Source of the DNA: Mobula hypostoma
Lineage: Eukaryota
Direction of reading: 5' to 3'
Assembly (NCBI RefSeq): GCF_963921235.1
Contig: NC_086108.1
Span: forward strand, 31,808,001 to 31,872,000
Length of the DNA stretch: 64,000 nt
Shown here piece by piece: positions 24,969-61,748 of the stretch; within the stretch, counting starts at the first letter, position 1; the number at the start of each line of letters is the position of its first letter. Under the pieces are notes generated by a model. It saw nothing but the letters and a program-made list of their open reading frames with translations. It did not search any database and had not been told where the DNA came from. The position numbers were made by a program, and so were the translations under genes.

Positions 24969-25673
24969 ATATACTGCGTCCGGTGCTCCCGATGCAGCCT
25001 TCTATATATTGGCAAGACCTGAGGCAGGCTGGGAGACTGTTTCGCTGAACACCTACACTCTGTCCGCCAAAGAAAGCAGGATCTCCCAGTGGCCACACAT
25101 TTTAATTCCACGTCCCATTCCCATTCTGCTATGTCTATCCACGGCCTCCTCTACTGCCACATTCAGGTTGGAGGAAAAACATCTTATATTCCGTCTGGGT
25201 AGCCTCCAACCTGATGGCATGAACATTGACTTCTCTAATTTCCGCTAATGCCCCACCTCCCCTTCCTAACCCATCGCTTATTTTTTTTCCTCTCTCTTTT
25301 TTCTCCCTCTGTCCCTCTCACTATAACTCTTTGCCTGTCCTCCGGGTTTTCCCCCTCCCCCTTTCTTTCTCCCTGGGCCTCCCGTCCCATGATCCTCTCC
25401 CTTCTCCAGCCTCGTATCCCTTTTGCCAATCAACTTTCCAGCTCTTAGCTCCATCCCTCCCCCTCCTGTCTTCTCCTATCATTTTGGATCTCCCCCTCCC
25501 CCTTTCAAATCCCTTACTATCTCTTCTTTCAGTTAGTCCTGACGGAGGGTCTCGATCCGAAACGTCAACTGTACCTCTTCCTAGAGATGCTGCCTGGCCT
25601 GCTGTGTTCAGCAGCACTTTTTGTGTGTGTTGCTTGAAATTCCAGCATCTGCAAATTTCCTCGTGTTAACTTA

Positions 25674-37900: not shown

Positions 37901-39203
37901 ATAAAAATTAGTATACTATTACGTTACCTTAGTATGTTATGTTTAAATTACATTGTTTGTATCATTTTTTTGTATTAATAACTCCTGTAATTTTATTATA
38001 TTCTAACAGTGTATTAGTGCCTTTATGGCTTACCTTTTTGTAAGATTTAAAAAGAAAGAAAGAAAGTGGGAGGGGGAGGGGGAGATCCAAAATGATAGAA
38101 GACAGGAGGGGAACAGATGGAGCCAAGAGCTGGACAGGTGATTGGCAAAGGGGATATGAGAGGATCATGGGACAGGAGGCCCAGGGAGAAGGAAAAGGTG
38201 GGGGGGGGGGAGAGAACCCACAGGATGGGCAAGGGGTATAGTCAGAGGGACAGAGGGAGAAGGAGAGTGAGAGAAAGAATGTGTTATTATTCTCCATAAC
38301 TTCCGCCACCTCCAACGGGATCCCACCACTAAGCACATCTTCCCCCCCCCCTGCTTTCCGCAGGCATCGCTCCCTATGCGATTCCCTTGTCCATTCGTCC
38401 CCCCCATCCCTCCCGGCACTTATCTTTGTAAGTGGAACAAGCGCTACACATGCCCTTACACTTCCTCCCTTACCACCATTCAGGCCCCAGACAGTCCTTC
38501 CAGGTGAGGCGACACTTCACCTGTGAGTCAGCTGGGGTGATATACTTCGTCCGGTGCTCCCGATGTGGCCTTCTATATATTGGCGAGACCCGACGCAGAC
38601 CGGGAGACCACTTTGCTGAACACCTACCCTCTGTCCGCCAGAGAAAGCAGGATCTCCCAGTGGCCACACATTTTAATTCCACATCCCATTCCCATTCTGA
38701 CATATCTATCCACGGCCTCCTCTACTGTAAAGATGAAGCCACACTCAGGTTGGAGGAACAACACCTTATATTCCATCTGGGTAGCCTCCAACCTGATGGC
38801 ATGAACATCGACTTCTCTAACTTCCGCTAATGCCCCACCTCCCCCTCGTACCCCATCCGTGATTTATTTTTATACACACATTCTTTCTCTCACTCTCCTT
38901 CTCCCTCTGACTATACCCTTGCCCATCCTCTGGGTTCCTCCCCGCCGCCTTTTCCTTCTCCCTGGGCCTCCTGTCCCATGATCCTCTCATATCCCCTTTG
39001 CCAATCACCTGTCCAGCTCTTGGCTCCATCCCTCCCCCTCCTGACTCCTCCGATAATTTTGGATCTCCCCCTCCCCCTCTCAAATCTCTTACTAACTCTC
39101 CCTTCAGTTAGTCCTGACGAAGGGTCTCGGCCTGAAACATCGACTGTACCTCTTCCAAGAGATGCTGCCTGGCCTGCTGCGTTCACCAGCAACTTTGATG
39201 TAT
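31973..39203 (+). mobile_element. Penelope-like element: inverted pLTR (31973-32147 and 38064-~38280) joined to a GIY-YIG 3' fragment with pLTR (~38281-39203), split by an L1 insertion
   Basis: ORF 38432-38830 (HFTCESAGVIYFVRCSRCGLLYIGETRRRPGDHFAEH...PVATHFN...LEEQHLIFHLGSLQPDGMN) is a GIY-YIG domain. 13-bp TSD atttctatattat at 31960-31972 and 39204-39216. Confidence 0.9.
32148..38063 (+). mobile_element. Apparently full-length (~5.9 kb) L1-clade LINE, inactivated (ORF1 ~32302-33210, ORF2 ~33927-37696)
   Basis: ORF1 remnants NLRMIGVREAVE, LLDRIHRV, KPRHVILRFH, RFVEDFS, PALLYPA. ORF2 SWNTNGLN, FLQETH, NVYAPN, GGDLN, SRIDY, ISDHAP, KAPGPDGF, LDAEKAFDRVEW, RGTRQGC, LYADD, CDRC...HMFWSC. (aaag)n tail. 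13-bp TSD aagtgggaggggg (32135-32147, 38064-38076). Confidence 0.95.
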
Positions 39204-39329
39204 ATTTCTATATTATATTTCATTAAACAGACAAGGCTTTGTTTAGACAGCGAATGAGAATTTTATCTGCTCAAAACTATTTCCATCATCCAAAGAAGAT
39301 GCAAATAAATTAAAATGCTGAAAGCTTTT

Positions 39330-42050: not shown

Positions 42051-42328
42051 TTCATACATTTATGAATTACATCTGCTTGTATCTTAAAAAATTGTGGACA
42101 GTACTCAACTACAGTTAAATCTACAGAATGAAGATGTTCTCAAACTGCTTCAGATCAAATTAGATTAGATACAACTTTATTGTCCTTGTGCTGAGTACAG
42201 TGTGACAAGAATATACATAGATAAGATGTTAACAACAGGAATTCTGCAGATGCTGGAAATTCAAGCAACATACATCAAAGTTGCTGGTGAACGCAGCAGG
42301 CCAGGTAGCATCTATAGGAAGAGGCGCA

Positions 42329-42362
42329 GTCGACGTTTCAGGCCGAGACCCTTCGTCAGGAC
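42329..42362 (-). ncRNA. Minimal type I hammerhead ribozyme motif (predicted), minus-strand copy
   Basis: Reads gtc-CTGACGA-AGG gtctcgg CCT-GAAA-C-GTC-gac: the CUGANGA/GAAA/NUH core with stem I gtc/gac, stem II AGG/CCT and a palindromic ACGT stem III. Confidence 0.75.
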
Positions 42363-42367
42363 GAAGG

Positions 42368-42401
42368 GTCCTGACGAAGGGTCTCGGCCTGAAACGTCGA
42401 C
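42368..42401 (+). ncRNA. Minimal type I hammerhead ribozyme motif (predicted), plus-strand copy
   Basis: CTGACGA 42371-42377, stem II 42378-42390, GAAA 42391-42394, predicted cleavage after GTC at 42398. Same motif as the minus-strand copy. Confidence 0.75.
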
Positions 42402-43290
42402 TGCGCCTCTTCCTATAGATGCTACCTGGCCTGCTGCGTTCACCAGCAACTTTGATGTATGTTGTTAGATAAGATGTTAGCTGTCCTGTGTGATCAGCAG
42501 TTGGTCTGCCACCTGTCTTCAAGAGAGAGATAAGGAACACAATGAAACAGCATCTGGAGATGTGTAATGAAGGGACGGGAGAGAGAGAGCTGTCTGGAGC
42601 GGCTCCCCCTTTGAACCCTGAACTGTTTGAAGTGATGGACAGGCGATACCCCAGCAGGGGGATAAAAAGGGACAGGTTTGCTAAGGCACGTCACACGACA
42701 CCCGAGGTAACGAGACCCTGGAAGCGGTGCGCCTCTCACGAGTCGGTGGGAAGTACCGGACAACGCACAGGGTGGAAAGGTACAATCAGCGGGAACCCGG
42801 TGTGTGTCCGCCCTTGCTTGGGTGCCGGGTTCACTGCAGAGGATCGACCGCATCTGGAGGAGGGGTCACAGTCGGTGACCTCAGGTGACATCACCAAGGA
42901 CCTGCCCAAAAGCTGCTTGTGAGCCATATCGCCGGTCTGTGAGTGGAAGCCGTGTCTGAATGATCAGTCGTTCCCTTTCTCTCTCTCCCCCGTTGTCCAT
43001 CGCCATGGCAACGATTACTGCGAACTGAACTAAATTGGACTGAACTTTTGTATCACTTTGAAATTTGGTCATTTACCCCAGACAACGATAGAGCTTGATT
43101 GATGCTGTTATCTTAATTCTGTGCACATGTGTGTTTATCATTGCTGAACTGTTGCATTTATTATCCTTTCGATTACTGTGTTGCTTGTTTTTTTAATAAA
43201 ACTTTCTTAGTTCTAGTAATCCAGACTCCAACTGAGTGATCCATTTCTACTGGTTTGGCAACCCAGTTACGGGGTACGTAACAACAGATA

Positions 43291-44919
43291 CAGGTTTCCC
43301 TCGCCATCCGAAGGTAGAGCGTTCCTATGAAACAGTTCGTAAGCCAGAATGTCGTAAAGCGAAGAAGCAATTACCATTTATATGGGAAAATTTTGTGAGC
43401 GTTCGCAGACCCAAAAATAACCTACCGAATCATGCCAAGTAACACATAAAACCTAAAATAACAGTAACATATAGTAAAAGCAGGAATGGTATGATAAATA
43501 CACAGCCTATATAAAGTAGAAATACTTTTCCACAATCATTGCCGGCACTGTTCTCCATAGCGAAAATCGCACGCGACTGCTCTCGGCAGAAAATATCACG
43601 CAAGCACTGTTGGCAAAAACACTCTCTCCAGTAACCTTTAAACTATGAAGCAGCCAAATCATACTAAATAACACGTAAAAATAAACAGCCTATATAAAGT
43701 AGAAATAATGTGTAGTATCACTTACAGGAATCGGGAAAACATCGAGCACACTGATGACAGTGTGTTAGATTGAGTCATCAGAGGCTGGGGTGGTGCAGTG
43801 GCCCCCACCCTCCAGGCCGCTGACCGATACTGATCCGCGAAGCATGCAGGGGCACAGCAGTAGCCGGTACTCACCCAGCACATCTTTAAGAAAAAAGCGA
43901 AAATAAACATGCTAATTAATTAGGTGCCGCCCGGCATGTAAATGTCAGCCCAGATCAGAGGCGACCCAATCGGCAATCACCCCTGATCTGGGCCGACATT
44001 TACGTGCCGGGCGGCACCTAATTAATTAGCATGTTTATTTTGGCTTTTTTCTTAAAGATGTGCTGGGTGCCTCCCGGCTACCGCTGCATTCTCCGCGAAT
44101 CGGTATCTGTCTGTGGCCTGGGGGTTGGGGTGGTGGTACATGGGGTGTCATCTCATCGTCGTCTGTTTCCACGAGGGCAGGCAGGTCATCATCTTCTACG
44201 TCTGCCTGCCTTGATGTCGAAGGTCGAGGTTCGTCATCTGCTGTGGCTGATGTGAAAGGCTTGCTTGACTGCTGAGCCTCGTGCATTTTTCGATCATACA
44301 GTTCTTTGTAAGCACTCAAACCATCTTGCAAATACGCTCTAAACCAACGTACCCTTTCAAAATTAAAGTCATACTTCATCATTGCACTGAAAATCTCACG
44401 TAGTTGCTTCACGTTTAGTTCCTGGACGACTTCACTTTCGCTACTGAATTTGGTTTCAATTGTTATCCTTTCTTCTTCCAATTGCATCAGCTCTTCATCT
44501 ATCAGTTCTTGGTCATGGGATGCCAAAACCTCCAACATCATCTTCATCAACTTCCACAAGCCAAACTCACTTTGCCTTTACTTCGTTCACCACGATCGAA
44601 ACGCTTAATTATGTCTAGTTTTATGCTACGTGTAACACCCTTACGAGCTCTTTTAGGCTTTTCCAACATCTTGCAAATAGCTGCTCACAGGCACGTGTTT
44701 AAGCAATGCCAGTGAGAATGCAGTTCCGAACCCGGGGGAGAGCGGCTGCTCGGGGTGCGCGCTGCCTTTTTTTTTTAATCGCGCACTGGTTTTCCCCGCG
44801 CGCTGCCTTTCTTCGTAACAGTGAAAATACCTTCTGTTAGTGAAAACAGGGAACTAATGTAGGTCTTTCGTAACAGTGAGGTTTCATAAAACGAACGTTC
44901 GAAAAGCGGGGGACACCTG
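43291..44919 (-). mobile_element. Tigger/pogo-like DNA transposon, internally deleted
   Basis: TA|CAGGTTTCCCTCGC ... GCGGGGGACACCTG|TA TIRs. N-terminal HTH remnant (KPKRARKGVTRSIKLDIIKRFDRGERSK, ~44580-44665) lies next to a Tigger/TIGD1-like C-terminus (EVLASHDQELIDEELMQLEEE...YKELYDRK). The DDE core is missing. Confidence 0.88.
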
Positions 44920-46429
44920 TACAAAGCCAATGAAATGCAGTTAGCATCTAACCAGAAATGCAAAGAATAGCGTTATTTACAAAATAACTGCAAATAAAAA
45001 GTGCTACAGCACACAAATATAAAAGTACTGAGACAGTACAACATGGCTGCAATACTGCTTAGTACTGTGATGTGAGGTTCAGCAGGGTCACAGCCTCAGG
45101 GAAGAAGCTCTTCCTGTGCCTGCTGGTGCAGGAGCAGAGGCTCCTGTAGCGCCTACCAGATGGGAGGAGAGTAAAAAGTTCATGGTAAGGGTGAGATGCA
45201 TCCTTGATAATGCTTTTCGCCCCGCTTAGGCAGCATTTATGGTAGATGTTCTCAATGGTGGGCAGTTTTCACCACATGCTGGAGTGCTTTGCAGTCCGAT
45301 ACAGGACAATTGCCATACCACACTGAGATGCAGTTGGTGAGTATGCCCTCAATGGTACAGCGGTAAAAACTCAATTGCTAAAACACTGGATAAGCTCAAA
45401 TTACAGGTAGGAGGAAAAAAAGATAAGAATTGGGTAAAATAGGTGCTAAGAGGATAATAAAGAACCAGTGTCCTGCAAATTTTATTTAATTGAATCAAGT
45501 ATGATAGCCTTATGTTCCTCATCTTTGTCACCCTACGTGTAAAATATGTTTAAAAACTGGACAGCTGTAGTCAATTGCCTCACCATGCAAAAATAAGATG
45601 GGGTGCATCTATTTGCAAATCACAACAAAATGCAAAAGGATCTGTACCTATCAATGAGCAGCTTCACTACAGCATGATCTCACTATCAAAATCTCCACTT
45701 ATTTCAACAAATAACCAAGTATGCATCTTAAATACAAAATTAAGCCCTCCACACTGTTAATGTAAGGATACCTTTAAGTGGCGCAATATATGCTCTTGCA
45801 ACTGAAGGATTCTCAGGGGCCGAGGCCTATTAAAACTAGAGTCTCGTTTCCACAAACAGCAAACTGCTCCAGTGAGATCAATTCCCTCATCCTTTGCTCT
45901 TCCTTTGTGTTTGTTTCCTCTCCAATTCTAATTTAAGTTTAAATTGACTTTTTCTCATAGTCATTAACCAATTTGTTCTCAATTTAGTTGGTCATTCCAG
46001 ATGATACTTCATTAAATGCACAAATTTTGCAGTAAAAGGGAATGTTACCTTCTACAGTAACAAACACTTCCATTCCTGTCCATGAAGGAAGATACCTCAT
46101 TGGTTGAAATGGTATGATTATGGATCCTGTCACTTCAAAGCTTCCAGATGTCTCTAAAATAACCTTGAGACTTAAAATAGTTTATGCTGCCAATTCCTTT
46201 AAACCAGCAGAGGGATGTTTAAAAAAAATCCAATTCAGAACTTGAAACAGTTCCATTTTTAAAGAATATACTATTCTCAAAAACACAATAAAATTAGCTT
46301 GCTCATACCTGTACATTTGGGATATTTCATATGCATATACTGGGAGACTTCCACTGCTTTTGTTTTGTTTCCAATAGCAGGAATTAGTACAGAACTAAAT
46401 GCTCATAGCATGAGGATTTTAAAAAATAG

Positions 46430-47180
46430 TTAATAATCTTCAGACTACAGATACAGGAATCAGGAACAAATAAACTTATCAGATCAAGCAGCACCTGTGA
46501 GGGAGGAGAAGGAATTGACAGCATTTTGGCCCAAGACACTGCATCAGGACTGATTGAAGGGACGTAGCAGACAGAAAGGTGAGTGGGGAGAGAACATAGG
46601 TGAGGCAGGGACCAGCAAGAGATAGGTGGAGCTAGGGATGATGGGGTGAAGGAACCAGTTGGGAGTGGGAAGGCAAAAAAGAGATAGAGACAGGTGGGTG
46701 ATAGGTGGAAGCAGACAAGAAACAAGGCATATGGAATCAAGCAACACACATCAAAGTTGCTGGTGAACGCAGCAGGCCAGGCAGCACTGGAAATTCAGCA
46801 ACACACAAGTTGCTGGTGAACGCAGCAGGCCAGGCAGCATCTGCAGAATTCCTGTTGTTTGCATATGGAATCAGGTGGGGTGGGAAAAAGAAAGGGGAAA
46901 GACAGACACAGACTAGGCAGGGACACAGACTAAAAGTGATAGAATCTGACATGTAGGGAAAGTGGTAACAGGAACTATTCAGAGGGAGACTAAATGCAGA
47001 TGAAACCCGAGAGTGCATTCAGGGGTGAAGTGTACAGGTGGTAGATGGACAAAACCATGAGGTACAGAGGGACAAAAACGGCTAACAGGGGAAAAACTGC
47101 CTAAAGAGAAAGTGAAAGCATGAGGCAAAAGATTATGTGAAATTGGAAAAATCCATACTCATACGATTGGGTTAGATTAG
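46430..47180 (-). mobile_element. Old Penelope-like pLTR/3' fragment
   Basis: Degenerate terminus (gacagcattttggcccaagacactgcatcaggactga), purine-rich UTR, and aaattggaaaaatccatactcat matching the GIY-YIG C-terminus. Confidence 0.6.
46740..46860. mobile_element. Rearranged Penelope pLTR mini-insertion (tandem plus inverted pieces)
   Basis: Two tandem gcaacacac..aagttgctggtgaacgcagcaggccaggcagca units, then gcagaattcctgttgttt. 13-bp TSD gcatatggaatca (46727-46739, 46861-46873). Confidence 0.85.
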
Positions 47181-47319
47181 GTCAGTTTCACTACAGCAGC
47201 TTGACACCTTTATCAAATAATTGAGAATGCATTACTCATGTCAAGGGTCAACAGAGGCCAATATGCTGAGACAGCCTACAAGAGTCACCATGCGTCCATT
47301 GCCAATACAGCATACCCAC

Positions 47320-47492
47320 AAATTATTAATCCTAACCCACACGTCTTTGGATTCTGGGAAGAAACAAGAGCACCCAGAGTAAACCCACACAATCATGGGG
47401 AGAACACATAAATTCCTAACAGGCAGTAAGAGGAATTGCTGATTGCAGGTGCTCTAAGGCATTGCACTAACTGCTACTCTACAGCGCCACCC
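47320..47492 (-). mobile_element. Degenerate tRNA-derived SINE (V-SINE/HE1-like)
   Basis: gtctttgga..tgggaagaaac.agagcacccagag.aaacccacac.atcatggggagaac core. A similar remnant lies at ~53660-53790. Confidence 0.6.
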
Positions 47493-48982
47493 AGGATTGT
47501 AGACCACCCTGGCAGAATAAAAGGTGTTGCTCTTCAAATTTGTGATGAGTCTCACTCTAGTGATGGAGAAGGCAGAGGACTGAGAGGTAAGTATGGGAAT
47601 GGAGAGTGAAAATAGCCTGCAACCAAAGCTCAGAATTCCACAAAATCTCAGTCATCCTCAACCTCCTCCAATGCCAGTTAACAACCTGTTCTTTTTAATG
47701 CAATGCAAAATAAAGCTCAAGAACTCAAGAATACAAGAAACGAGAGGAATGGGTCGCACTTATTTCCTTGCATTAAATAAAAGAGGTGGTCCTGATCTTG
47801 GCCTCCATTTCACTTTTCCTCTTGTCCTGATCAACTTTGAAACAAATAATGTCTAAAAACAAAAGCCTTGAGCATTAATGACAGCATCCATATCTGTGGT
47901 AGAGAACTCACAAGAATGACAACCCTTTCAGAAGAATTTTTTCACCCATGATTTCAAAGTACAAGGTTCAAATTTATTATCAAAGTATGCGATATGCAAC
48001 CTTGAGATTCATCTTGCAAGCACTCAAAGAAACACCATCAAATTTTCCCCCAAAAAAGCACACACAAAGACTGCCAAATATCAAATTTGCAGAAGAGGAC
48101 AAATCAGGTAAATTACAAAAAAATGTAAACAAATTCACTTGGAACATGAACTGCAGAATCCACAGGCTGTGGAGCTTGTTCAGTGCTGAGGCAAGTGAAG
48201 CCCATCCAAGAGAGGCATTGATAGGGTAGAGAGTCTTTATATCCAAGAGAAATACATCAAATACTAGATTTAAGATGAGATCAGGAAACAAAGGAAAATT
48301 GCAAAACCTGTTATACACAGACTGGTAGGTGCTTGGAACACTGCTATGGAAAGTAGTGGAAGCAGATATGATAGAAGCATTTAGGAGCTATTTACAGGCA
48401 CAGGAACAGGCATACAGAGTGCATGGGGCCTGTTCCTGTGCTGTAACGTTCTTTAAGATGAACTGCAAGGCAAGTACCCAAGGCTGCAATTCAGTAAACA
48501 GTTGTGCAAACCCTTAACTGCTGGGTAGTTTGAGCATTTAAAGTGCTTTCAGTAGTTAAAAACTATTTATACTATTACAAGCATAAATATTTGTTCTGTT
48601 GGGCCCTATTACCAAAGAAGTTTATGATTATGCATTACTTCCACCACAAAAAAATGATAGATTTTCTAGTAAGCATGCTGTTAAAACCTCTCTGGTAGAC
48701 TACCTTCTTTTGAAAGGTTTCTCAGGTGTTATATTGAAACCTTATTGCTTATTTCGGAAGCATGCATGTTACTTGTACTGAAGAGGAATAGAACAATAAC
48801 CATTTAATCATTTATGACATTAGATCAAAACAACTTCAAGGCTGTCATTTTAAAAAGCAGCAAATTGAACAATTTAAGATCTCTCCATTCCGGAACCAGA
48901 AAACTATATCGTTTGAAACGCAAATGGGAGGGGTGGGGAAGAACCTGTAGCTAAAATAGGGACAAGATGGCCAATTAGCCCC

Positions 48983-49891
48983 CTCTCTTCACCATTTACA
49001 CCTCGGACTTCAACTACTGCACAGAGTCTTGTCATCTTCAGAAGTTTTCTGATGACTCTGCCATAGTTGGATGCATCAGCAAGGGAGATGAGGCTGCGTA
49101 CAGGGCTACAGTAGGAAACTTTGTCACATGGTGTGAGCAGAATTATCTGCAGCTTAATGTGAAAAAGACTAAGGAGCTGGTGGTAGACCTGAGGAGGGCT
49201 AAGGCACCAGTGACCCCTATTTCCATCCGGGGGTCAGTGTGGACATAGTGGAGGATTACAAATACCTGGGGATACGAATTGACAATAAACTGGACTGGTC
49301 AAAGAACACTGAGGCTGTCTACAAGAAGGGTCAGAGCCACCTCTACTTCCTGAGGAGACTGAGGTCCTTTAACATCTGTCGGACGATGCTGAGGATGTTC
49401 TACGAGTCTGTGGTGTCAGTGCTATCATGTTTGCTGTTGTGGGCTGGGGCAGCAGGCTGAGGGTAGCAGACACCAACAGAATCAACAAACTCATTCATAA
49501 GGCCAGTGATGTTGTGGGGATGGAACTGGACTCTCTGACGGTGGTGTCTGAAAAGAGGATGTTGTCCAAGTTGCATGCCATCTTGGACAATATCTCCCAT
49601 CCACTACATAATGGACTGGTTGGGCACAGGAGTACATTCAGCCAGAGTCTCATTCCACCGAGATGCAACACTGAGCGTCATAGGAAGTCATTCCTGCCTG
49701 TGGCCATCAAACTTTACAACTCATCCCTTGGAGGGTCAGACACCTTGAGCCAATAGGCTGGTCCTGGACTTATTTCCTGGCATAATTTACATATTACTAT
49801 TTAATTATTTATGGCTTTACTACTATTTAGTTATTTACGGTGCAACTGTAACGAAAACCAATTTCCCTCGGGATCAATAAAGTATGACTAT
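48983..49891 (+). mobile_element. Rex1/Babar LINE, 3' portion
   Basis: LFTIYTSDFNYCTESCHLQKFSDDSAIVGCI, LQLNVKKTKELVVD, YKYLGIRIDNKLDW, LYFLRRLRSF, CNTERHRKSFLPVAIKLYN. Ends gggatcaataaagtatgactat. Confidence 0.92.
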
Positions 49892-50602
49892 CTTGTGCCA
49901 TGCATTCTAAGGACTGGATATTTTGCAGCCAGTTCCAACAGAATCGTCTGGAAATCATGAAAAGCCTTATCCCAACATTGCTTTCAAGCACAGAAATTTG
50001 GGACCTAATGAATGGCAATTGGTTGTATAACTGACAAAACCCTAACCAGCACAGTTTAACAACATGACTTCTTTGCACAAAAATGCACTTTTTAAAGTTG
50101 TTCTTGTATCAGTGTATAATTTTTTGTGAATGCTTATAATAAAATTTATTGCAGCAAATAAGTTTTTACTGCACTTCTGCATACCTGCATTTATGCATCC
50201 GACAGTAAACTGAATTTTGTCCTTGATCTTTTGCTACACCCAGGGGCAGACCCTAGTCTTGTTGTGGTTACATCAACATTATACCAAAAATGTAATGGGG
50301 TAAATGATGAATTCTCAAATCCTGTGCTATCAAATGACATTGATTTCACTGAGCTAAATGGATTCAGAGACAAAGAGTAGGAAGCCAAGTTATTTGTTTA
50401 AATTTGCTTCAATGTTTTTAATTGTACGTTTTAGAACTAGACATTTAAAATATTTATAGCCTTAGCAATCAGCAGAGCCTCACCAGCCACTTTGCTGGCT
50501 ATGACAAGAAATTTGTTTTTACACCACTCACAACCCATCTTTATTCGTACCATTCCACTGGACTTAAAGGTGCAGAAGGCAAGTGAGATGAAAAGCACAT
50601 TG

Positions 50603-50798
50603 ACACGAGGAAATCTGCAGATGCTGGAAATTCAAGCAACACACACAAAAAATTCTGGTGAACGCAGCAGGCCAGACAGCATCTATAGGAAGAGGTACAG
50701 TCGACGTTTCGGGCCGGGACCCTTCGCCCGAAATGTCGACTGTACCTCTTCCTATAGATGCTGCCTGGCCTGCTGCGTTCAGCAGCATTTTTTGTGTA
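50603..50798. mobile_element. Fold-back Penelope pLTR mini-element
   Basis: Inverted arms meet at gggacccttc|gcccgaaatgtcgac. Probable decayed TSD aaaagcacattg / aaaggcactttg. Confidence 0.85.
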
Positions 50799-51569
50799 AA
50801 AGGCACTTTGGTTGGGACAATCGGAAGTAGTACTGGTTCAACTCAATTTAGCACCTTGCTATCCTGTGCCACTGAAGTTATGATCTCTAATGTGCTCTGA
50901 AACATCAAAAATCAGTAAATGAGCTATATTCTGGTTATACATCGCCATTCCAGCCATGAACTAAATTGAGAAGCAACATATTACAAGGCACTGAACAAAA
51001 AATGTACTTGTGAAACTGACTGGATAGCTCAAGCAGGAAGGGCAAGTGAAGCCACATTGACTGTTTCAGCTCCTCAATCATAGGATGTTGCATTTAAACA
51101 GATTAAAAGCAAAACAAAGATATTTAAAAGACAAATAGAATCCTCAAGAAAGTTGATCAAGTTTGACTTCATGTTTTAAGATTAATTGCAATCAACAACT
51201 AAAAAAATCAGATGTAAAGACTTCGGGAAAAAAACTACAAAACCTGGTACAAAAAGCTGGAAACAGTCAGTACTTGTAGAGAGAACAGACTATGTAATGC
51301 TGTCTGTGCATCAAAACTGACACAAGCCAATAGGAACCATTTTTGTTCTCCATGCCTAGTAACAGGATAGTAGTCAATCAGCTAGTAAGTCAGGCAAAAA
51401 AAAAATCATACCCATGTTCCAAAGGAAAGGAACATATCTGGACTTCAATTCAGTGAAGTAGAGCAGAATTATAACCAATAATGAACAGTTAACTCAATTA
51501 CTTTTTAAGTTCATCACTGGGTTTGATATTTGTTGCTGGTTAGGGAGGGGAATAATTGTTTCACCACTT

Positions 51570-52098
51570 CAGAATCAGGTTTACTATCACCGGCGTGTGA
51601 TGTGAAATTTGTGAACTTAGCAGCAGCAGTTCAATGCAATACATAATCTAGCAGAGAGAGAAAAATAATAAAAAGAAAACAATAAGTAAATCAATTACAC
51701 ATACTGAAAAATTTTGTTTTAATGTGCAAAAACAAAATACTGTATATTAAAAAAGTGAGGTAGTGTTCAAAGCTTCAACATCCATTTAGGAATCGGATGG
51801 TAGAGGGGAATAAACTGTTCCTGAATTGATGAGTGTGTGCCTTCAGGCTTCTGCATCTCCAATCTGATGGTAACAGTGAGAAAAGCGCATGCCCTGGGTG
51901 CTGAAGGTCCTTAATAATGGGTGCTGCCTTTCTGAGACACCACTCCCTGAAGATGTCCTGGGTACTTTGTAGGCTAGTGCCCAAGATGGAGCTGACTAGA
52001 TCTACAACCTTCTGCAGCTTCTTTCGGTCCTGTGTAGTAGCCCCTCCATAACAGACAGTGATGCAGCCTGTCAGAATGCTCTCCACAGTGTAACTACA
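51570..52098 (-). mobile_element. Rex1/Babar-like LINE 3' fragment
   Basis: ORF 51775-52086: ESILTGCITVCYG...LQKVV...IIKDLQHPGHALFSLLPS...FRNSLFPSTIRFLN. Confidence 0.85.
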
Positions 52099-52099
52099 G

Positions 52100-52620
52100 A
52101 CACATCATCTGCAATGCTGCTCTCTGGAAACCATGTACCTTTATTCCTTGGTCCTGATGTTCCACAATACTCCCCAACGTGCCACCATTTGTTGTACAAG
52201 TCCTATCCTGGTTGACTTTCCAAAATGCAACATTTTGCACTTATCCAAACTGAGAACCATTTGCCAGTCTGTGGCCCACTCACCAAGCTGATCCCCTTGT
52301 ATTTTGTGATAACCTTCTTCACTGTCAACAATACCATTTATTTGAGTGTCATCTGAAAACTTACTAATCATGCCTCGTACATTCTCATCCATGTCATTTA
52401 TATAAACAATGAAAAGTAAAAGTCCAAGCATTGATTTCCATGCCACACCACTAGTGAGAGGCCTCCATTCCAGGAAACAACCTTCTAACTGTTACTCTGC
52501 TTACTGCCATTAAACCAATCATGAATCCAATTAGCTATTCCCCTTGGATCTCATATGATCTAACCTTCCAGAGTTGGCCACTGTATCAAATCTCATCGAA
52601 GACCTTGCTGAAGCTGACAT
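52100..52620 (-). mobile_element. CR1 RT fragment
   Basis: LFIVYINDMDENVRGMISKFSDDT, WQMVLSLDKCKMLHFGK. Confidence 0.8.
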
Positions 52621-53382
52621 TGACTAAAGGGTGGGCAGGACATGTGGTGGTATAGCCGTGAGATGAGGGGGAGGGGAGACAGTGAACAGAGTGCTTGAAG
52701 AACAAGGGAGGTCATGATCATAATGCATCCAAGTTATTGAAGGAGGAACAAACAAAATGGTGAATATTGGTAATGTTAATCCTTGATGTCCTAACTCTAC
52801 ACATTCAAGATGCCTCACTACCAACCAGCGTAGGCAATGAAATTCTACAAATCGTTAAACAGCAAAGGACTCAGTAAATGCCACATAGATCATGGAAGAT
52901 GACCAAGTTTACCAGAAAGTAGAACTGTTTTATTATCAAAACCCAGAATAATAAACAGCTATGACATATTGTAACTGATTAGCTGGCAGAAAACACATGG
53001 TACACAAATGAATTCTTCCCACTTAATCAAAATATTAAATCTCCTGGCTCAATGCATAATTTTAACGTGTACACCTCTTATCCTTCTAGAAAATGAACAC
53101 CTGTAATCATTACAAATTTTGATAAGCTACAGGAATCTCCACTGAGAAATTCTGAAAATTGCAGTTAGATACTGTGTTGTAGCTTACTTTTAAAAAAAAA
53201 ATCAAGGAATCCATTTGTTTTATCATTCTCTTGCAATAATGTAACCTATTGAAAACATTTCTTTCATCTTGGTGCTGCAGATCAGGAACTTTGCACATCT
53301 TCGTTGTAAGTCTGAGTCACAGAGCAGGCCCTTTCACCCATATGACCATCAAGCACCCATTGACAATCATCCATTTTATTCT

Positions 53383-53554
53383 GACCAAGGGTCTCGGCCT
53401 GAAACATCGACTGTACCTCTTCCTAGAGATGCTGCCTGGCCTGCTGCGTTCACCAGCAACTTTGATATGTGTTGCTTGAATTTCCAGCATCTGCAGAATT
53501 CCTGTTGTTGATGCGTGTTGCTTGAATTTCCAGCATCTGCAGAATTCCTGTTGT
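53383..53554 (+). mobile_element. Penelope pLTR mini-insertion with a tandem-duplicated 3' end
   Basis: Begins inside a mutated hammerhead core (ct|gaccaagggtctcggcctgaaacatcgac). The terminal ~41 nt occur twice. 14-bp TSD atccattttattct (53369-53382, 53555-53568). Confidence 0.88.
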
Positions 53555-56043
53555 ATCCATTTTATTCTCTTATCTTCATCAACCACCCACACCTCACACA
53601 CTCCCCATCTAGATTCGAGCACTCACATACATGCTGCAGGCTTATTTCAGCAGCCAATTAACCCCAACACTGCGTATGTTTTTGGAAAGTGGAAGGAAAC
53701 CCATGCAAAGGGAGAATGTACAAACACCACAAAGGTAACATTGGTGATCCAGATTGAACTGGAATCACTGGTGTTGGCAGCAACTCTTAGCTAAATGATT
53801 CTTTAGACATTCCTGAAATTTTCCGTTTTCCTCCCAGAGGACCTCATCTATTGGTAGTTAAGTAAATTTTAATTTCAAATATTTGCCCTGAAATGCATCT
53901 ATCTTAATCCTCTGAATCCCTTTGCAGTTATCTTAAAATTGTGCATCAAATGCCATTTCATGTCAAAATTAAAATTATTCTTCTTACTGCACATTTTTTC
54001 TTAGGCTTGTCTTCCTCTGTTTTTGGTGAGGGACAAGAGCCTTCAAGTTAACAAGATAAGCAACATGGCTTGTCTTAGTTAATCAGATCAAAGAATTGTG
54101 AAATTGACAGTGCACCGATGTGTGCAAATTTGAGTGGCTCAGTTCAATTTCAAATCGTTTGCAGAAAGATAGAGTGAAAAGAGAAGTGAATAAAAGCAGA
54201 AGATAAATAAAAAATTTAAATAAACAAGAAATATAATAGTTAATTTATAGGTCTAGAGGAACAATTAGCAGTAAATAACCCTTAATGACCATGAAGTTAA
54301 ATTGATTAAAAAAAACAAATTGCAGGAACTTAGCTTGCACTAATCATCCAACTATAGCATCTTCAGCCATTCAGTGCATTTCAAGACAACCAGAAAGTCA
54401 AAGCTTTCAGAAGGCAAATGTGGAATACTGCAACTCAGTCAACAACTTTTGGATATTCACATTCCTCTCACCCATTTTTATAGTTGTTTTTCATTTGTGC
54501 ATAATTGCAAGTATCAATTGCCTCATTTTTTCTTTTATTATGAACTAAAATATTTAATTGTTAGAGAATAAAAATATAGTGAGGACAAATTTTCAGATAT
54601 TAATATTATTCTCCAAGCACCAGTACAATCTGTTCCCACTTCTTTGCAATGTAACTCGCAGGCTGGTGAACACATTTTAAGTTTTGAGAAAAATCCTTAA
54701 TATCTAAGCAAATCAACACATTTTCAATGCAACTTTGAAATCAAAACTAGTACTAAAAAGTAGGGCAACTAAAAACTTACTTGAGGTCATGCATCATATG
54801 TAAATTGGGGTAAAAAGTTAATAGCCAGATCTTGGACATGATTATCCAATACATTAGCTTGTGCCCACTTGGGCTCTTGCTCTCTTACAGGAGCCAGAAA
54901 CTAGAAACAATATTTTGCAAAGTATGCTGGATTTGGATAGTTACTTAAAACTAACATTGTAAACTACATATAATTTCCGTTAATATTAAGCCCAGTGAAC
55001 TTAAATAATTCAAGTGTCACAGTGCTTTAGAAAATTCAACAAGACTGGGAAATTAAACAGCTTTAAGAGAAAAAGATAGGAAACAGGTGTTTGATATAGA
55101 CAACAAATTAGTCACTTGTTTTATACGGACAACAAAGTAGCTGAGACTGCAGATGATCATGTCTCCTTAAGAGCCAGAGGCAGGAAAGTTAAGATAGGAG
55201 GTGACCTTGAATGCAGTTGGCAATGTTGATACTACAGTCAAGGATCTAATGTCTAAATGATTTCTTGCTCAAGGAAAGCATGCAATCCGTTTACTCCTTT
55301 CACCACCAGGCATCCATCCACACGTACTGATGATATAATTGAAGCTAAGGGCATCACATTCAGAGCCATATGGAGTTCACAACATGCTACCCTATACAGA
55401 CCTGCTATCTGGCAACTCTTCAAAAGCAATTGTAAACTTTACAGTAGCACCATAAGAACTTTTGAGAACCAATTCCAAATTATAAGGCTTGGTTCAGAGT
55501 CGAAATGAAAACTAAAATAGAATTACATGTCACATGCAGAAAAACATTTTAAAAATAAATACAGCGATTTTAAGCTATAGAAATAACACTTTTAAATGCA
55601 GATGTCAGTTGAGGAGAGAAGACGAAGAATGAAAAATTACAAGAGACGTCGTAAGGACACAAAACCTTCAGAATCATTCGGACAGCACGTAAAAGCGACC
55701 GTAGATTGGCAGAGAGACATGAAGAAACCAAACACACCACCCCATAATAATGGCCTCATATTTTCTATCAGTACAAAGGCAGGATTCTGAGGTATTTTCC
55801 CCCCGAAAGAAATCCCCCAATTACATTATGAAACTTCAAACTTGTTAGGAGCCTCCGTCCGTCCCATTTTCAGCCAGAAACTGTTGAAAGCGAAACAGCG
55901 CCCTAGCTGAAGACCAGGCCTAGTTGGAATGCAAGCCTGTGGGTTAGGGACACAAGTCTGGGGTGAGGGATAGAAATGGGGGGTGGGGGGGGAAGAGTAT
56001 AGTGTTGTTGAAGGGGAAGGCGGGCTGCCCCTGCATCACTTAC

Positions 56044-56096
56044 CAGTATAACACCGAGATACTCAAACATACAAACAAAACGTGCCGCTGGTTCAT
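56044..56096 (-). CDS. SUCO: SUCO coding exon 1 (signal peptide)
   Basis: aaaagATG AAC CAG...TAC TG|gtaagt. Encodes MNQRHVLFVCLSISVLY(W) and ends in phase 2, matching exon 2. Comparable to SUCO MKKHRRALALVSCLFLCSLVW. Lies in a CpG-rich region. Confidence 0.88.
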
Positions 56097-56940
56097 CTTT
56101 TCACAGTAATTGACATCCTCGTAGCCTTTCCTCCACCGGACGCTCTCTTTAATCGTCCTTCGCTCGGTCACTGGGCTCCATGGAGGCTCAGCAGCCCGTC
56201 GCCTCCACTGACGCCGGGAACCAACAGGCCGCGACGCCGCGCGTTGCACATGGGAGCCCCGTCCGCCGACTCGCGCTGTCGAGTTGGAACCTCATTAGTA
56301 TTTAAAAAGTCGGCCACGCCGCCTGGCTGCCCGTGCCCCCGCCCATCTCACCTCCTCCCCGCCCCTCCTCCTCCTCTAACCATGCCGACCATTGAAAGCA
56401 GAGTGTGAAAAATACTCCTCCCGCCTGCACCCATTGACGCAACAAACAGGGGCGAGGAACCGCCCACTCAGCAACCTCATCTGTTGTTGCGTCAACAACT
56501 GAGCTCACCGCGTCAAGCCGGAATGCACGGTGGGAGTTGTAGTTGTAGCGTAGAGAGACGCGTTACCGACGCGACATGAGGCATGTGGTGAAAGGGTAAC
56601 TGTACCAGAGACGGATGTTCTGAGCACTCCACTGGCGTGATGTGGTTAATTCAGATGGGCGGCGGTGCTTTTTTTAGGGCGTAGTTGTTTCCCCAAATAA
56701 CCAAGACGCGATATTTAACTTCCGACTACGGCGGGAATGATGGAAGGTCTGGCGGCTGGTTGAATGACGTAGCGCTGAATTGGCGCTGTGATTGGACCAG
56801 TGGGCAGGAGCGACGGGTCGCGCAGTGCGTGCGTTCCGGTGTGCAAGTTTATTCCCCCATCTTCGCTCCTCGTCCCGGGCCGCTGCCTGGGCTCCTCACT
56901 TCATCCATCCGTCTGTCTCCTTCGCCTCCCACGGGCGACG
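56097..56940. promoter_or_regulatory. CpG-island bidirectional promoter and 5' UTRs of SUCO and TMED5
   Basis: CpG-dense region between two divergent ATGs. ZNF143/SBS-type ACTACAACTCCCA (minus strand, 56531-56543), inverted CCAAT boxes (56779-56783, 56791-56795), ETS-type CCGGAA (56518-56523, and minus strand 56834-56839), TGACG half-sites. Confidence 0.85.
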
Positions 56941-57108
56941 ATGGGTGCGATGTCATGGCTGCCGTTTATGGTCTGCGGTTTGGCGAGAGTCGCGTTCGGT
57001 TTCTCTCAGTCCTATGATAGCGATTTCACTTTCACTCTGCCGGCGGGGCAGAAGGAGTGTTTCTACCAAACTATGAAGAAAGATGCCACCCTGGAGATTG
57101 AATATCAG
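56941..57108 (+). CDS. TMED5: TMED5 (p24 gamma family) coding exon 1: signal peptide and start of the GOLD domain
   Basis: gcgacgATGG Kozak context. Encodes MGAMSWLPFMVCGLARVAFGFSQSYDSDFTFTLPAGQKECFYQTMKKDATLEIEYQ|gttggc, matching TMED5 WLPF...DSDFTFTLPAGQKECFYQ...LEIEYQ. I did not find exon 2 in the window. Confidence 0.92.
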
Positions 57109-57324
57109 GTTGGCAACAGGCGCGTTTCTGTACTTAGTGTTATTTCTGTATACAGCCACTTAGTGATGTTTTCTTTAAAATTATGGCTCTATTATGAAAG
57201 TGAGTATAAATACAAAGTATTTGGGATACTTGTTCAATAATATTCCTGTAGTGGTCGTAGTTTCTGTATGGGTATTAGTATATTTCTCTGTTTCTTAACT
57301 ATCAGTAAGAACATACACCTTATA

Positions 57325-57538
57325 ACAAACCCAAGAGGTACTGCAGATGCTGGAAATCTAGAACAATACACACATTGTGCTGGAGGAACTCAGCAGGTCA
57401 AGCAGCACCTATGGACAAGAATAAGCAGTGGGCATTTTGGACCGAGACGATGAAGATGAGTCTTGGCCCAAAACATTAACTGTTTATTCCCATTCATAGA
57501 TGCTTCCTTCACTTGCTCAGCTCCTCCAGCACATTGTT
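57325..57538. mobile_element. Older fold-back Penelope pLTR mini-element
   Basis: ctgcagatgctggaaatct...tgctggaggaactcagcaggtca arm and inverted cttgctcagctcctccagca arm, with a decayed tgaagatgagtcttggcccaaaacatt core at the centre. Confidence 0.7.
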
Positions 57539-58329
57539 GTAAGATGCAATATACACAAAGACTGAACAACCAATCTAGAAAAGTAACTGAGTATTAATAG
57601 CTCATGCTGTTGCAAACACACAATTTATCTGACCCTGTAAAATGAAACTTTTTCAAGACTACATTAGTGTTCCACCAAACACCTATGCAGAACTTGAAAA
57701 TCTCATTACCCTCGTGGCCAATTCCCATCCTACCTCAACCTTTACTTGATCCCTATCCATCATGAGCCCTTGCCTTTGTCAGAATCAGTACTTATGTTAC
57801 TTTGCTCCTCCAACCTCCACATTCATTGGATCATCCTTGGCAATTTCTGCCATATTCTACCATCAGACATATCTTCTCCTCCTCTTTGCATTCCAAAAGG
57901 ACCATCCCATTGTCTCCATAGATGTTGCTCTTTGGGTAGTTTGTGCTCCAGATTCTAGTATCTGCAGTGTCTTGTGTTTACAGAGGAACAGTTCCCTTTA
58001 TCACTCCCTGGTCTATTCTTCCATCTTTCTCAAAGAATCCCCTGTCACAGCTCAGTCCTGCACAATTGTAGATGAAAAGCAGCAAATTAGTCAAAATCCT
58101 ACTCCAACCAGGCCTATTGGTCAATGAGGTACCACTATACTAACATTTGCTAGCACTCTGTCACTGCCATAGCCTGGAATGGCGACCATGAAGCAAGTAT
58201 GCCCAAGGTGCCATGTGGAACACAAAATGTTGGCATACAGTGCCACCCCTTGATTTTCTAAAACCCATCCATTATAAAAGGATTTTTTTGCACACTTTTG
58301 TTGATTGCAAGATCCTGTTGGATATTGGT

Positions 58330-59830
58330 AATAGACAAGAGGTGCAGGAGTAGGCCATTCGGCCCTTCGAGCCAGCACTGCCATTCACTGTGATCATGGA
58401 TGATCATCCACAGTCACTACCCCGGTCCTGCCTTCTCCCCATATCACTTGACTCCGCTTTCTTTAAGAGCTCTATCTAACTCTTTCTTGAAAGCATCCAG
58501 AGAATTCACCTCCACAACCTTCTGAGGCAGAGCATTCCACAGATCCACAACTCTCTGGGTGAAAAAGTTTTTCCTCAACTCCATCCTAAATGGCCTACCC
58601 CTTACTCTGAAACTGTGGCCTCTGGTTCTGGACTCCCCCAACATCGGGAACATGTTTCCTGCCTCCAGCGTGTCCAATCCCTTAATAATCTTATATGTTT
58701 CGATCAGATCCTCTCTCATCCTTCTAAATTCCAGTGTATACAAGCCCAGTTGTTCCAATTGTTCCAATCTTTCGACATATGACAGTTGCGCCATCTGGGG
58801 AATTAACCTCGTGAACCTATGCTGCAGTCCCTCGATAGCAAGAATTTCCTTCCTCAAATTTGGAGACCAAAACTGCACACAATACTCCAGGTGTGGTCTC
58901 ACCAGGGCCCTGTACAGCTGCAGAAGGACCTCTTTGCTCTTATACTCAATTCCCCTTGTTATGAAGGCCAGCATACCATTAGCTTTCTTCACTGCCTGCT
59001 GTACTTGCATGCTTGTTTTCAGTGACTGATGTACAAGAACACCTAGATCCCGTTGTACTTCCCCTTTTCCTAACTTGACTCCGTTTAGATAATAATCTGC
59101 CTTCCTGCTCTTACCACCAAAGTGGATAACCTCACATTTATCCACATTAAACTGCATCTGCCCACTCACCCAACCTGTCCAAGTCACCCTGCATTCTCAA
59201 AACATCCTCCTCACATTTTACACTGCCACCCAGCTTTGTGTCATCTGCAAATTTGCTAATGTTATTTTTAATCCCTTCATCTAAATCATTAATGTATATT
59301 GTAAATAGCTGCGGTCCCAGCACCGAGCCTTGCGGTACCCCACTGGTCACCGCCTGCCATTCCGAAAGGGACCTGTTAATCGCTAATCTTTGTTTCCTGT
59401 CAGCCAGCCAATTTTCAATCCATGTCAGTACTCTGCCCCCAATACCATGTGTCCTAATTTTGCCCACTAATCTGCTATGTGGGACCTTATCAAAGGCTTT
59501 CTGAAAGCCCAGGTACACTACATCCACTGGCTCTCCCGTGTCCATTTTCATAGGTACATCCTCAAAAAATCCCAGAAGAATAGTCAAGCATGATTTCCCC
59601 TTCGTAAATCCATGCTGACTCGGACCGATCCTGTTACTGCTATCCAGATGTGTCGTAATTTCATCCTTTATCATTGACTCCAGCATCTTCCCCACCACTG
59701 ATGTCAGGCTTAAATGGTCTATAATTCCCTGTTTTCCTTCTCCCTCCTTTCTTAAAAAGTGGGATAACATTAGCTACCCTCCAATCCACAGGAACTGATC
59801 CTGAATCTATAGAACATTGGAAAATGATTA
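58330..59830 (-). mobile_element. CR1 LINE, 5'-truncated RT region
   Basis: ORFs 59147-59770 and 58444-59187 carry the CR1 RT motifs, followed by the CR1 3' UTR. Confidence 0.95.
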
Positions 59831-59841
59831 TGTGGAATACT

Positions 59842-60590
59842 GCAAGGCAAGTTTATTTGTATAGCATTTTTCAAACAAGGGCAGTTCAAAGTGCTTTACA
59901 GAGAACAAGATATAAAAATCAAACATCAAATCTCAGACATACAAAGGAGAATAAAATCATGCAAAAAATAGATAATGTTAAATAGATTTAAAGAGGGATA
60001 AAAGTTACAGTGCAGGAGATTCTAATTAAAAGCTAAAGCAAAAAGAAAAGTTTTAAGCCTTGATTTTAAAAGAGCTTAAAGTTGGAGTAGACTTCAGATC
60101 CTCTGGAAGGTTTTTCCAGATATGTGGAGCATAGTAACTAAAACCTGCTTCGCCATGTTTAGTTTTGACCCCGGGGGCAGTAAGCAAACCCACCCCAGAT
60201 GACCTGAGACCTCAGGAAGGTTCATAATGCAACAGAGATTGAAGATGTATTTTGGCCCAAGACCATTCAGTGCTTCATAAATCAGTAGTAATATTTTAAA
60301 GACAAATCTCCGATGGACAGGAAGCCAGTGTTGCGATCTGAGAACTAGGGTGATGTGTTCTACTTGCTTGGTCTCAGTGAGGACACTAGCAGCAGTGTTC
60401 TGAATGAGCTGCAGCTGTCTGAGGGATATTTTTACAGAAACCTGTGAAAACCATTACAGTTGACAAGCCTACTAAAAATAAATGCATGGACAAGTGTTTT
60501 TTCAATCTTGCCGAGACCCTTTCATTCTTGCTAAATTTTTAAGATGGTAGTAGGCTGACTTTGTAATTGTCTTAATATGGCGTGTAAAAC
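59842..60590 (-). mobile_element. L2-clade LINE 3' fragment
   Basis: gcaaggcaagtttatttgtatagcatttt...caaagtgctttaca tail. Minus-strand remnants of AYYHLKNLAR, VHAFIFSRL, QLIQNTAA, EHITLVLRSQHWLPV, SYYAPHIW. Confidence 0.75.
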
Positions 60591-61013
60591 TTAGTGGTTC
60601 ATTTGCAAGGTCTGACAGCAAGGGAGCTGCGTGGCCTCGGTTGTGGTACAGACCAGGCCTCATTTATTCCTTGGGGTCGGAGGTTTCAGCCACCAAGGAA
60701 GGAGATGCCAGAGCTGGCTGTGTGCTGTAGATTCTGTGCGGGGTTTCAGGCAGACTCCTCCCACTGTGCTGCTCTCTAGTGCTTGCTCAGTGGGAGACGA
60801 GCTGGATTGCTTTCTCTGCAGCTGCACTGAGTGATATGGGGAACTGCTGCAGGTTGTTCCTGCAGAAACATGGCTCTCAGGGATTCGGCCAAATTAGTAT
60901 TTTTTGCTGTGTAGCTATGTTATCTGCTATTATAATTATGTGATATAAGTGCTGTGTGTGACTGTTGGTTCTGTGTTTTGCATCTTGGATCCAAAGGAAC
61001 GCTGTTTCATTTA

Positions 61014-61242
61014 AAAACACAAGCAGGAGGAAATCTGCAGATGCAGGAAATTTAAGCAACACACACAAAAAATGCTGGTGAATGCAGCAGGCCAGGCAGC
61101 ATCTGTAGGAAGAGGTACAGTTGACGTTTCGGGCCGAGACCCTTCGTCAGACCCTTCAGGTCCTGGCCCGAAACGTCGACTGTAACTCTTCCGATAGATG
61201 CTGCCTGGCCTGCTGCGTTCACCAGCATTTTTTGTGTGTGTT
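61014..61242. mobile_element. Fold-back Penelope pLTR mini-element
   Basis: Inverted arms meet at gagacccttcgtcag|acccttcaggtcct|ggcccgaaacgtcgac. 13-bp TSD gctgtttcattta (61001-61013, 61243-61255). Confidence 0.9.
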
Positions 61243-61748
61243 GCTGTTTCATTTAGGTGTATTCCTGTGTCTGCTTGAATGGTAATTGAGCTTCAACTTG
61301 ATCATTATCTTTACTTCTAAATGGAGTAGTGAATGATTTTCTTACAACCCAACAGCAATGAGATGTCTTCACAGTAGATGTCTCACGTCAGTTTGGCTTC
61401 AGCGAGATAGTCGTGAGAACATAGAATTTTGGATAATATGTTTTGAAATCCTCACAGACCTGGTGGACACATCAGTAGCAGTATAGCAAATAGTTGGGCC
61501 AAATGATCAAAGGTTCATTTTATTGTACAATATGTATGCATGTACAATACAACTCTGATACGTCTTCTCCAAAGAGCCAAGAAATACAGAAAGGCCATAC
61601 ATCAACCTCCCCCCGCACGTGAAAAAGGAAACAAAACTCACAGACCCCAAAATCCCCACCCACTCCCCCACAAAAAAAGCAATGATAGAATCGAGTTCCC
61701 TACTTCGCTCTGCTTGTGTTTCTTCTTGTATTGTGTGTGAGTGAACAC

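Follow-up and report, generated by a model that had tools for sequence, protein, structure and literature searches.

The short non-coding inserts scattered along a 64,000-nucleotide stretch of the Mobula hypostoma genome (assembly GCF_963921235.1, contig NC_086108.1, positions 31,808,001 to 31,872,000 of the forward strand; the whole stretch is referred to below as the window) are ends of a very abundant Penelope-like element (PLE) and represent ordinary dead copies. The 5' ends of such inserts pile up at the front edge of the hammerhead ribozyme motif harbored by the terminus of the element, in the first bases of helix I. The inserts probably represent short insertion products of a Neptune-type PLE generated by paired priming and run-off of the reverse transcriptase (RT). 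Overall, the feature is real and belongs to a known kind of insertion, with no separate mobile family involved, and it carries a testable mechanistic signal that is fairly well supported.

The parent element and the 5' ends of its short insertions

Positions within the element are numbered relative to the predicted hammerhead cut, GAAACGTC|GACTG, the C of GUC being taken as 0. The inserts correspond to the 3'-terminal part of a repeat which is also present in the window as long copies. The element possesses two 3' ends located 35 nt apart, S1 at about +66 and S2 at +101, and the 35 nt leading from S1 to S2 (the tail) are the opening bases of the next unit. A full-length copy (L055) comprises a 359-bp pseudo-long terminal repeat (pseudo-LTR, pLTR) followed by a unit of ~3.5 kb with the tail and an open reading frame (ORF). 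RT motifs, a C-X4-C-X2-C linker and a GIY-YIG end were recognized in the translated ORFs of L055 and L136 (single ORF). The homologues of the ORF bear PF00078, some of them together with PF01541, and the top match is a shark protein; three L055 pieces scanned directly against Pfam, as well as a PDB search, returned no match. A CX2-5CxxC linker between RT and the endonuclease (EN) is described as a Neptune feature in the available text of PMC8557442, and the parent, to judge from its sequence, is assigned to the Neptune-type EN-containing (EN+) PLEs by linker type. The one-sided tail of 30-40 bp and the pLTR stemming from a partial tandem were both found (the 35-nt tail and the pLTR of L055). 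A terminal profile gave 272 matches in 1.234 Mb, which corresponds to several hundred thousand termini when scaled to the 3.48-Gb genome; the termini form at least six subfamily groups, and the parent family numbers tens of thousands of near-identical copies.

The distribution of the ends was assessed in 117 unselected 10-kb stretches taken at fixed positions, where all the termini were parsed (213 arms); the arm counts exclude three stretch-edge arms, one local duplicate and the window. The arms were classed as young (59) or old (151), the ends of the latter being less exact. Of the young arms reaching -21, 9/48 end in [-35,-21), as do 47/98 of the old ones, and the per-base end rate of the young arms amounts to 0.013 in this interval vs. 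~0.001 or less beyond -45. At the same time, 34 of the 59 young arms run past -285. Genome-wide exact patterns retrieved 6,945 arms beginning at -33 to -29, and a hand count of the first 100 of them gave 10, 19, 25, 33 and 13 at -33, -32, -31, -30 and -29, respectively. The pattern for -38 to -34 had 4,114 matches (49 of the first 100 represented a long-copy variant), and the pattern continuing past -39 had 33,450; the patterns have different fixed parts, so the ratios between these counts are approximate. The peak is also present in single-arm stubs (13 of 30 loci); hence, pairing between arms is not its cause. No recurrent upstream sequence, e.g., a spliced exon 1, was found before the stubs, neither in 30 loci nor in the first 100 of the 6,945 arms.

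The initial annotation of the window suggested that the breakpoints cluster at the ribozyme. The clustering goes beyond chance, and the junctions are not spread uniformly along the pLTR, but the cluster coincides with the 5' boundary of the motif (-33 to -29, the first strand of helix I) instead of the cut. Copying of ribozyme-cleaved RNA is therefore largely refuted for the young family and retains next to no chance: none of 50 young arms ends at the cut, and the peak lies 30 nt upstream of it, in sequence that no cleaved RNA would contain. Ends within [-3,4) of the cut do occur in 8/128 old arms; however, this spot is CpG-rich and variable, and the alignments of old copies are interrupted at it.

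The common end and the two arms

The peak is likely the physical 5' end of the RNA template, most often A(-31). Loci joining the tail to the ORF bear on this; 90 of them were examined out of 359 matches, with the jumps tallied by hand. In 27 of the 90, an arm starting from S1 or S2 is followed, in the cDNA order, by a jump into the ORF and then by a second pass through the terminus. The landing points range from +135 to ~+1277 in the ORF, many of them lying at +235 to +276, and 8/27 jumps leave exactly at A(-31), with either no extra bases or A-rich ones (reaching eight A in L277). At the 13 loci with the first pass ending at -31 to -46, not one of the 18 later passes or partner arms extends past -47, in comparison with 38/48 of the ordinary young arms (p 2e-9). 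Repeated stops were also recorded at points outside the hot spot: at +15 twice (L281), at -42 twice (L271) and at -85/-84 (L318). Such stops differ from insertion to insertion, which can be accounted for by a bounded RNA but not by a pause site.

A pause and drop-off of RT at about -30 on a long RNA, imposed by RNA/cDNA structure or by a factor sitting on the splice acceptor, would put the peak at the same place. The peak coincides with the loop of a predicted hairpin, repeated snap-back insertions are seen at -30, and a polypyrimidine-YAG splice acceptor precedes the ribozyme in all six subfamily consensus lines; in Drosophila virilis, an intron ends at helix I, according to the available text of PMC4209133. 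This explanation seems unlikely, however, given that no later pass crosses the end of the first one and that stops are repeated elsewhere. Moreover, only 2 of 46 upstream pLTRs copied after long ORF passage end in the peak zone (L246 and L300; only near ends were read), stops are infrequent at the 3' foot of the hairpin, [-21,-11), and the fold is no stronger than that of shuffled sequences (z -0.67).

The greater part of the likelihood of an RNA end at -31 goes to a transcription start site. The bases around A(-31) fit the initiator consensus, YYANWYY, in five of the six consensus lines; other jump ends, at A(-46), A(-50) and ~A(-84), are likewise preceded by a pyrimidine, and the promoters of PLEs are located in the pLTR. 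Trimming of the RNA to a folded or protein-bound domain is a possible alternative origin of the same end. A polymerase III origin is a minor option; three jump ends (+235, +237, +239) coincide with the first T4 run, and most others do not. The joints at -31 in RNA contigs probably derive from older subfamilies whose 3' untranslated region is different. Runs of at least five A stand between the target-site duplication (TSD) and the element at 5 of 30 loci (L323, L325, L339, L348 and L351); in L342 and L330, they separate arms or pieces. The loci had been chosen for A-runs. Runs of A before A(-31) might arise by untemplated addition or when RT jumps onto a poly(A) tail. As a separate observation, 5-16 A directly before A(-31), outside any TSD found, are present in L323, L325, L339, L342, L348, L351 and L337.

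The relationship of the two arms was followed in 56 young pairs, a set in which hot-spot loci are over-represented. Exactly one arm bears the tail in 53 of them, each of S1 and S2 thus being used once per head-to-head insert, and among these 53, the tail-less (S1) arm extends further 5' in 14, the tailed (S2) arm in 13, and the two end within 3 nt of each other in 26. In L111 and L041, the tail-less arm is longer by 208-790 nt. Because a fold-back copy cannot exceed its template, i.e., the tailed arm, the arms were separately primed. The arms are discordant at three diagnostic sites in 7/53 pairs vs. 41.8 when shuffled; thus, they usually come from one source RNA or locus. The unselected young pairs, read by hand, include 5 short-short, 6 long-long and 1 mixed, and the TSDs are mostly 13-15 bp. 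The spacer between the arms of L239 is a short CCTAA-type repeat, presumably resembling the reverse strand of the telomeric repeat.

Inversion in EN+ PLEs has been explained by self-priming (PMC8557442, PMC3846280, in their available parts). In the model put forward for rotifer PLEs, a single cDNA (or an antisense template) would fold back and prime itself at a palindrome, after which the endonuclease trims one end. The sharing of haplotype by the arms in 46/53 pairs, the near coincidence of ends in some long pairs (within 5 nt, e.g., -572/-577 and -641/-638) and the junction palindromes put forward in the available text of PMC3846280 agree with it. Still, it is rendered quite improbable by the pairs in which the tail-less arm reaches further 5', by single-arm stubs with the same end and by the presence of two haplotypes in L156 and L214. 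Separate priming finds a parallel in vitro, where, according to the available text of PMC11167929, an Anolis PLE nicks and extends both strands, initiates at two internal sites bounding the tail, uses uncleaved RNA, and yields shorter products from 5'-truncated RNA.

Paired priming with run-off would then proceed as follows. Both nicked target strands would prime RT, one at each internal start site (S1 and S2), usually on the same RNA. The template, an uncleaved and often 3'-truncated RNA, would begin at the first base of the hammerhead, most often A(-31), the probable start site of the pLTR promoter, and RT would run off its 5' end after ~100-130 bases. Microhomology might then guide the joining of the cDNA ends, either mutually or with the target DNA, small templated insertions being added in the process. 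Long copies would come from RNAs continuing upstream (read-through, tandem or circular), and the stubs are likely dead ends.

A number of points weigh against this picture or its parts. About one third of the short young arms end elsewhere, downstream of -21. The contrast between the upstream pLTRs and the young arms in the peak zone (2/46 vs. 9/48) is borderline (p 0.051). The RNA 5' end at -31 is deduced from genomic copies, and its cause is not unique because the same bases constitute the splice acceptor and the hairpin loop. A cap-derived G was not evident before A(-31): a hand count of the first 100 of 2,799 matches gave G 31, A 34 and C 35, and G was absent in 8/8 jumps at -31; a single G precedes A(-46) in L304. 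The A-run matches (39 at -31, 8 at -27) have no denominator. As for the arms, seven pairs are discordant, L156 and L214 looking like products of two RNAs, and later gene conversion could be partly behind the concordance of the rest.

Shared junctions and tandem units

Identical junctions do recur at other loci, a check suggested along with the initial annotation: the junction of the insert at 42232 stands at 12 loci. In the 10 of these loci examined, the tail is on the left in 5 and on the right in the other 5, and subfamilies A1, A2 and B are all represented among the arms; since both the tail side and the subfamily vary, a single master is ruled out for this junction. More broadly, symmetric -30 junctions occur at 254 loci with many different spacers, and among the first 50 of them (counted by hand), a blunt junction is common to 10 and a 2-nt one to 7. 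The spacer at 42232 is the complement of five bases beside a 3-nt match in the same arm. Judging by these bases, snap-back synthesis of the cDNA end followed by end joining can likely re-create it, polymerase-theta-type end joining being a pathway of this kind. The same junctions could be re-created many times because joining by microhomology is accompanied by templated insertions.

The alternative offered in the initial annotation, a retrozyme-like non-autonomous hairpin family copied in trans from master stubs, draws on this recurrence and on the existence of short tandem hammerhead units (L262, L263 and L356). It is very improbable and finds no support in the six inserts of the window, as copies of the shared junction differ in subfamily and tail side, arm haplotypes track those of the autonomous element, only two of the six inserts keep the ribozyme core, and the two 310-bp arrays described below have different haplotypes. 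Unlike non-LTR retrozymes, the inserts are head-to-head or single and not composed of head-to-tail units, and only the same two have the core. The stubs also lack the ORF-side sequence on which internal priming depended in the in vitro reaction of another PLE (PMC11167929, available text). The other option of the same annotation, stereotyped products of the PLE reaction, is supported; as regards the attribution of these products to RT stalling at the ribozyme structure, the peak behaves like a physical template end and not like a structural stall.

The features of a minimal hammerhead were recognized by inspection in young copies and subfamily consensus lines: the CUGANGA + GAAA core, the NUH site, helix I of 4-5 bp, an extra base before helix II, and a palindromic remnant of helix III. 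An Rfam scan of the window revealed no hammerhead family; the matches to mir-3926 and mir-2131 were rejected as merely reflecting palindromes, their scores being below gathering scores.

Two loci, L262 and L356, harbor tandem arrays of a 310-bp unit (-33 to +276). Like non-LTR retrozymes, they consist of at least two units of 150-450 bp with a hammerhead motif. At the junction, +276 (GT comes next in the reference copy) abuts -33 (with a pyrimidine tract and CAG upstream of it there); the junction is splice-like and not located at the ribozyme cut. The arrays lie on different contigs, have different haplotypes and both end mid-unit; two units of L262 carry a CpG change beside the cut site. To judge by these junctions, the 310-nt unit was apparently copied by a rolling-circle mode from a back-spliced RNA circle at two loci; splicing across a tandem with subsequent amplification at the DNA level is a rival explanation. 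These arrays are rare and distinct from the window inserts. Other short units and joints include a 262-bp unit present twice in L263, 340 bp crossing one junction twice in L232, and a +252|-85 junction with 4-nt microhomology common to L314 and L318.

The arrays share the head-to-tail layout, one hammerhead per unit and derivation from the pLTR with the non-LTR retrozymes (PMC7229834; bioRxiv 10.64898/2026.07.22.740005, both in their available parts). They differ by the minimal hammerhead, the splice-like junction and occurrence at two loci only. The preprint, in its available part, proposes local DNA amplification, whereas the data presented here point to rolling-circle RT; the arrays offer a route for the PLE origin proposed there.

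A fuller, more tentative reading embraces all these products. Transcription would start at the first base of the ribozyme, and linear uncleaved RNAs would give strong-stop-like stubs by paired priming. On reaching the RNA 5' end, RT would jump to 3' ends, oligo(A) ends among them. Long copies would stem from circular or tandem RNA lacking a 5' end at that point, and small circles (a back-spliced 310-nt exon with the ribozyme and the RT starts) would yield retrozyme-like arrays in one step. As a whole, this chain is possible at best.

The window inserts, known systems and implications

All six short inserts reported for the window exist (Table 1). The observation that the fold-back or truncation point falls within ~30 nt upstream of the cut in five of six is correct, the junctions lying at -30 to -10, with the exception of the insert at 46740 (+22, +19). 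Perfect TSDs of 13-14 bp flank four of the six (42232, 46740, 53383 and 61014), in line with the statement that most have their own; the best candidates for 50603 and 57325 (8-9 nt with one mismatch) are inside the null obtained from 150 random position pairs. Calling the inserts hammerhead-bearing was an overstatement, as the core is intact only in both arms at 42232 and in one arm at 61014. The hammerhead core pattern has 5 matches in the window; the chance mean is 1.31, and 3/100 shuffles reach 5.

Table 1. Coordinates of PLE-derived features in the window and of the 310-bp tandem arrays; element positions are relative to the hammerhead cut.
Coordinates	Strand	Feature	Remarks
22319..25667	+	Long 5'-truncated copy, ~ -1970 to tail	Interrupted near 23635-24966
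31973..32147	-	Single arm, +101 to -74	Missing from the initial annotation
38285..39209	+	Long 5'-truncated copy, -893 to ~ +66, with GIY-YIG coding end	Same element as the inserts
42218..42231	.	TSD, left copy, 14 bp	Right copy 42466-42479
42232..42362	-	42232 insert, S2 (tail) arm, +101 to -30	Intact minimal hammerhead core
42363..42367	.	42232 insert, 5-nt templated spacer	Same junction at 12 genome loci
42368..42465	+	42232 insert, S1 arm, -30 to +66	Intact core
46740..46860	.	46740 insert, three pieces: +71 to +22 and +79 to +19 (minus), tail +85 to +101 (plus)	No hammerhead
46727-46739 / 46861-46873		46740 insert, TSD, 13 bp	
50603..50797	.	50603 head-to-head insert, +100 to -23 (minus), -10 to ~ +60 (plus)	Incomplete core; no convincing TSD
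53383..53554	+	53383 stub, -27 to +101, then direct repeat +56 to +101	Substitution in core
53369-53382 / 53555-53568		53383 insert, TSD, 14 bp	
57332..57540	.	57325 head-to-head insert, +99 to -17 and -26 to +63	Old subfamily; no convincing TSD
61014..61242	.	61014 head-to-head insert, +99 to -27, -18 to ~ +66	Core intact in +99 to -27; 8-nt spacer
61001-61013 / 61243-61255		61014 insert, TSD, 13 bp	
G000:C2:157815500-157818500		L262, tandem array of 310-bp unit (-33 to +276)	Four junctions
G000:C50:58410983-58414011		L356, tandem array of 310-bp unit (-33 to +276)	Two junctions

Within the long copy at 38285..39209, positions 38432-38827 gave a weak GIY-YIG match (E 0.0089, below the cut-off). 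A miniature inverted-repeat transposable element, i.e., a DNA transposon, was considered for the inserts and rejected: their ends are unequal (S1 and S2), the TSDs are 10-16 bp, and the sequence is that of a PLE terminus. The surroundings are rich in other repeats. An older repeat (18994-19356 vs. 42160-42200 + 44921-45240) is split by ~2.7 kb of nested insertions, including the 42232 insert. A self-palindrome of 338 columns (82%) is located at 43803-44130 within a DNA-transposon-like repeat, the end of which recurs at 24501-24722, inside a long PLE copy. Two copies of an 800-bp repeat resembling a solo LTR (17440-18245 and 42493-43283) are 91% identical. A decayed long interspersed nuclear element (LINE) with an endonuclease-like start occupies 33783-37696, and a 638-aa RT frame (RVT_1, E 9e-33) at 61834-63750 belongs to another LINE family with several copies in the window. 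Finally, the frame at 56779-57240, just upstream of the 57325 insert, matches emp24/gp25L/p24 (GOLD; E 1.5e-07) and is probably the first exon of a host TMED-type gene.

Run-off products are familiar from other retroelements. The minus-strand strong-stop DNA of LTR elements is primed near the RNA 5' end, runs off and then jumps, and the RT of R2 is capable of end-to-end template jumping with added bases. Unlike both, here the target DNA would prime at two internal sites, and the run-off product itself would be integrated.

Among PLEs, the layout and the solo and opposite-strand minimal hammerheads are already published. The insertion units of EN+ PLEs, as described in the available parts of PMC8557442 and PMC3846280, consist of a 5'-truncated copy and an adjacent inverted copy with a one-sided 30-40-bp tail. 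The units reported here share with them the head-to-head layout, the one-sided tail (35 nt), TSDs and partial tandems, and differ from those descriptions in that many are cut to ~100-130 nt per arm with a sharp common 5' edge. The available text on the Anolis Poseidon element PAc (PMC11167929) likewise features two start sites bounding the tail, extension of both strands, uncleaved RNA, and a hammerhead upstream of the start sites. PAc represents a different clade, whereas a Neptune linker is found here, and that text is without strict S1+S2 pairing, an RNA 5' end at helix I or template jumps. With the minimal hammerheads of metazoan PLEs (PMC4209133), the core, the short helix I, the extra base before helix II and the palindromic helix III remnant are shared; solo motifs and opposite-strand pairs 100-700 bp apart are reported among them in the available part of the same paper. 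That part proposes cleavage and circular templates and leaves the ends of short copies unmapped, whereas the stubs considered here would come from uncleaved RNA. In the literature covered, neither the edge at helix I and the run-off reading nor strict S1+S2 pairing or such jumps were found, subscription papers and supplements being outside the scope (Fig. S2 of PMC11167929 may bear on this).

To date, in vitro work has covered a single full-length PLE protein (PMC11167929, available text). The data bear on the questions of how PLEs build their pseudo-LTRs, inverted ends and tails, and of what role the hammerhead plays in it. The abundant near-identical copies give base-exact predictions, namely an RNA start at A(-31) and one priming per start site per insertion; further predictions are that stubs never come from cleaved RNA and that the spliced circle is a route from PLE to retrozyme. 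If true, the run-off edge would provide a testable clue to the movement of these poorly understood elements.

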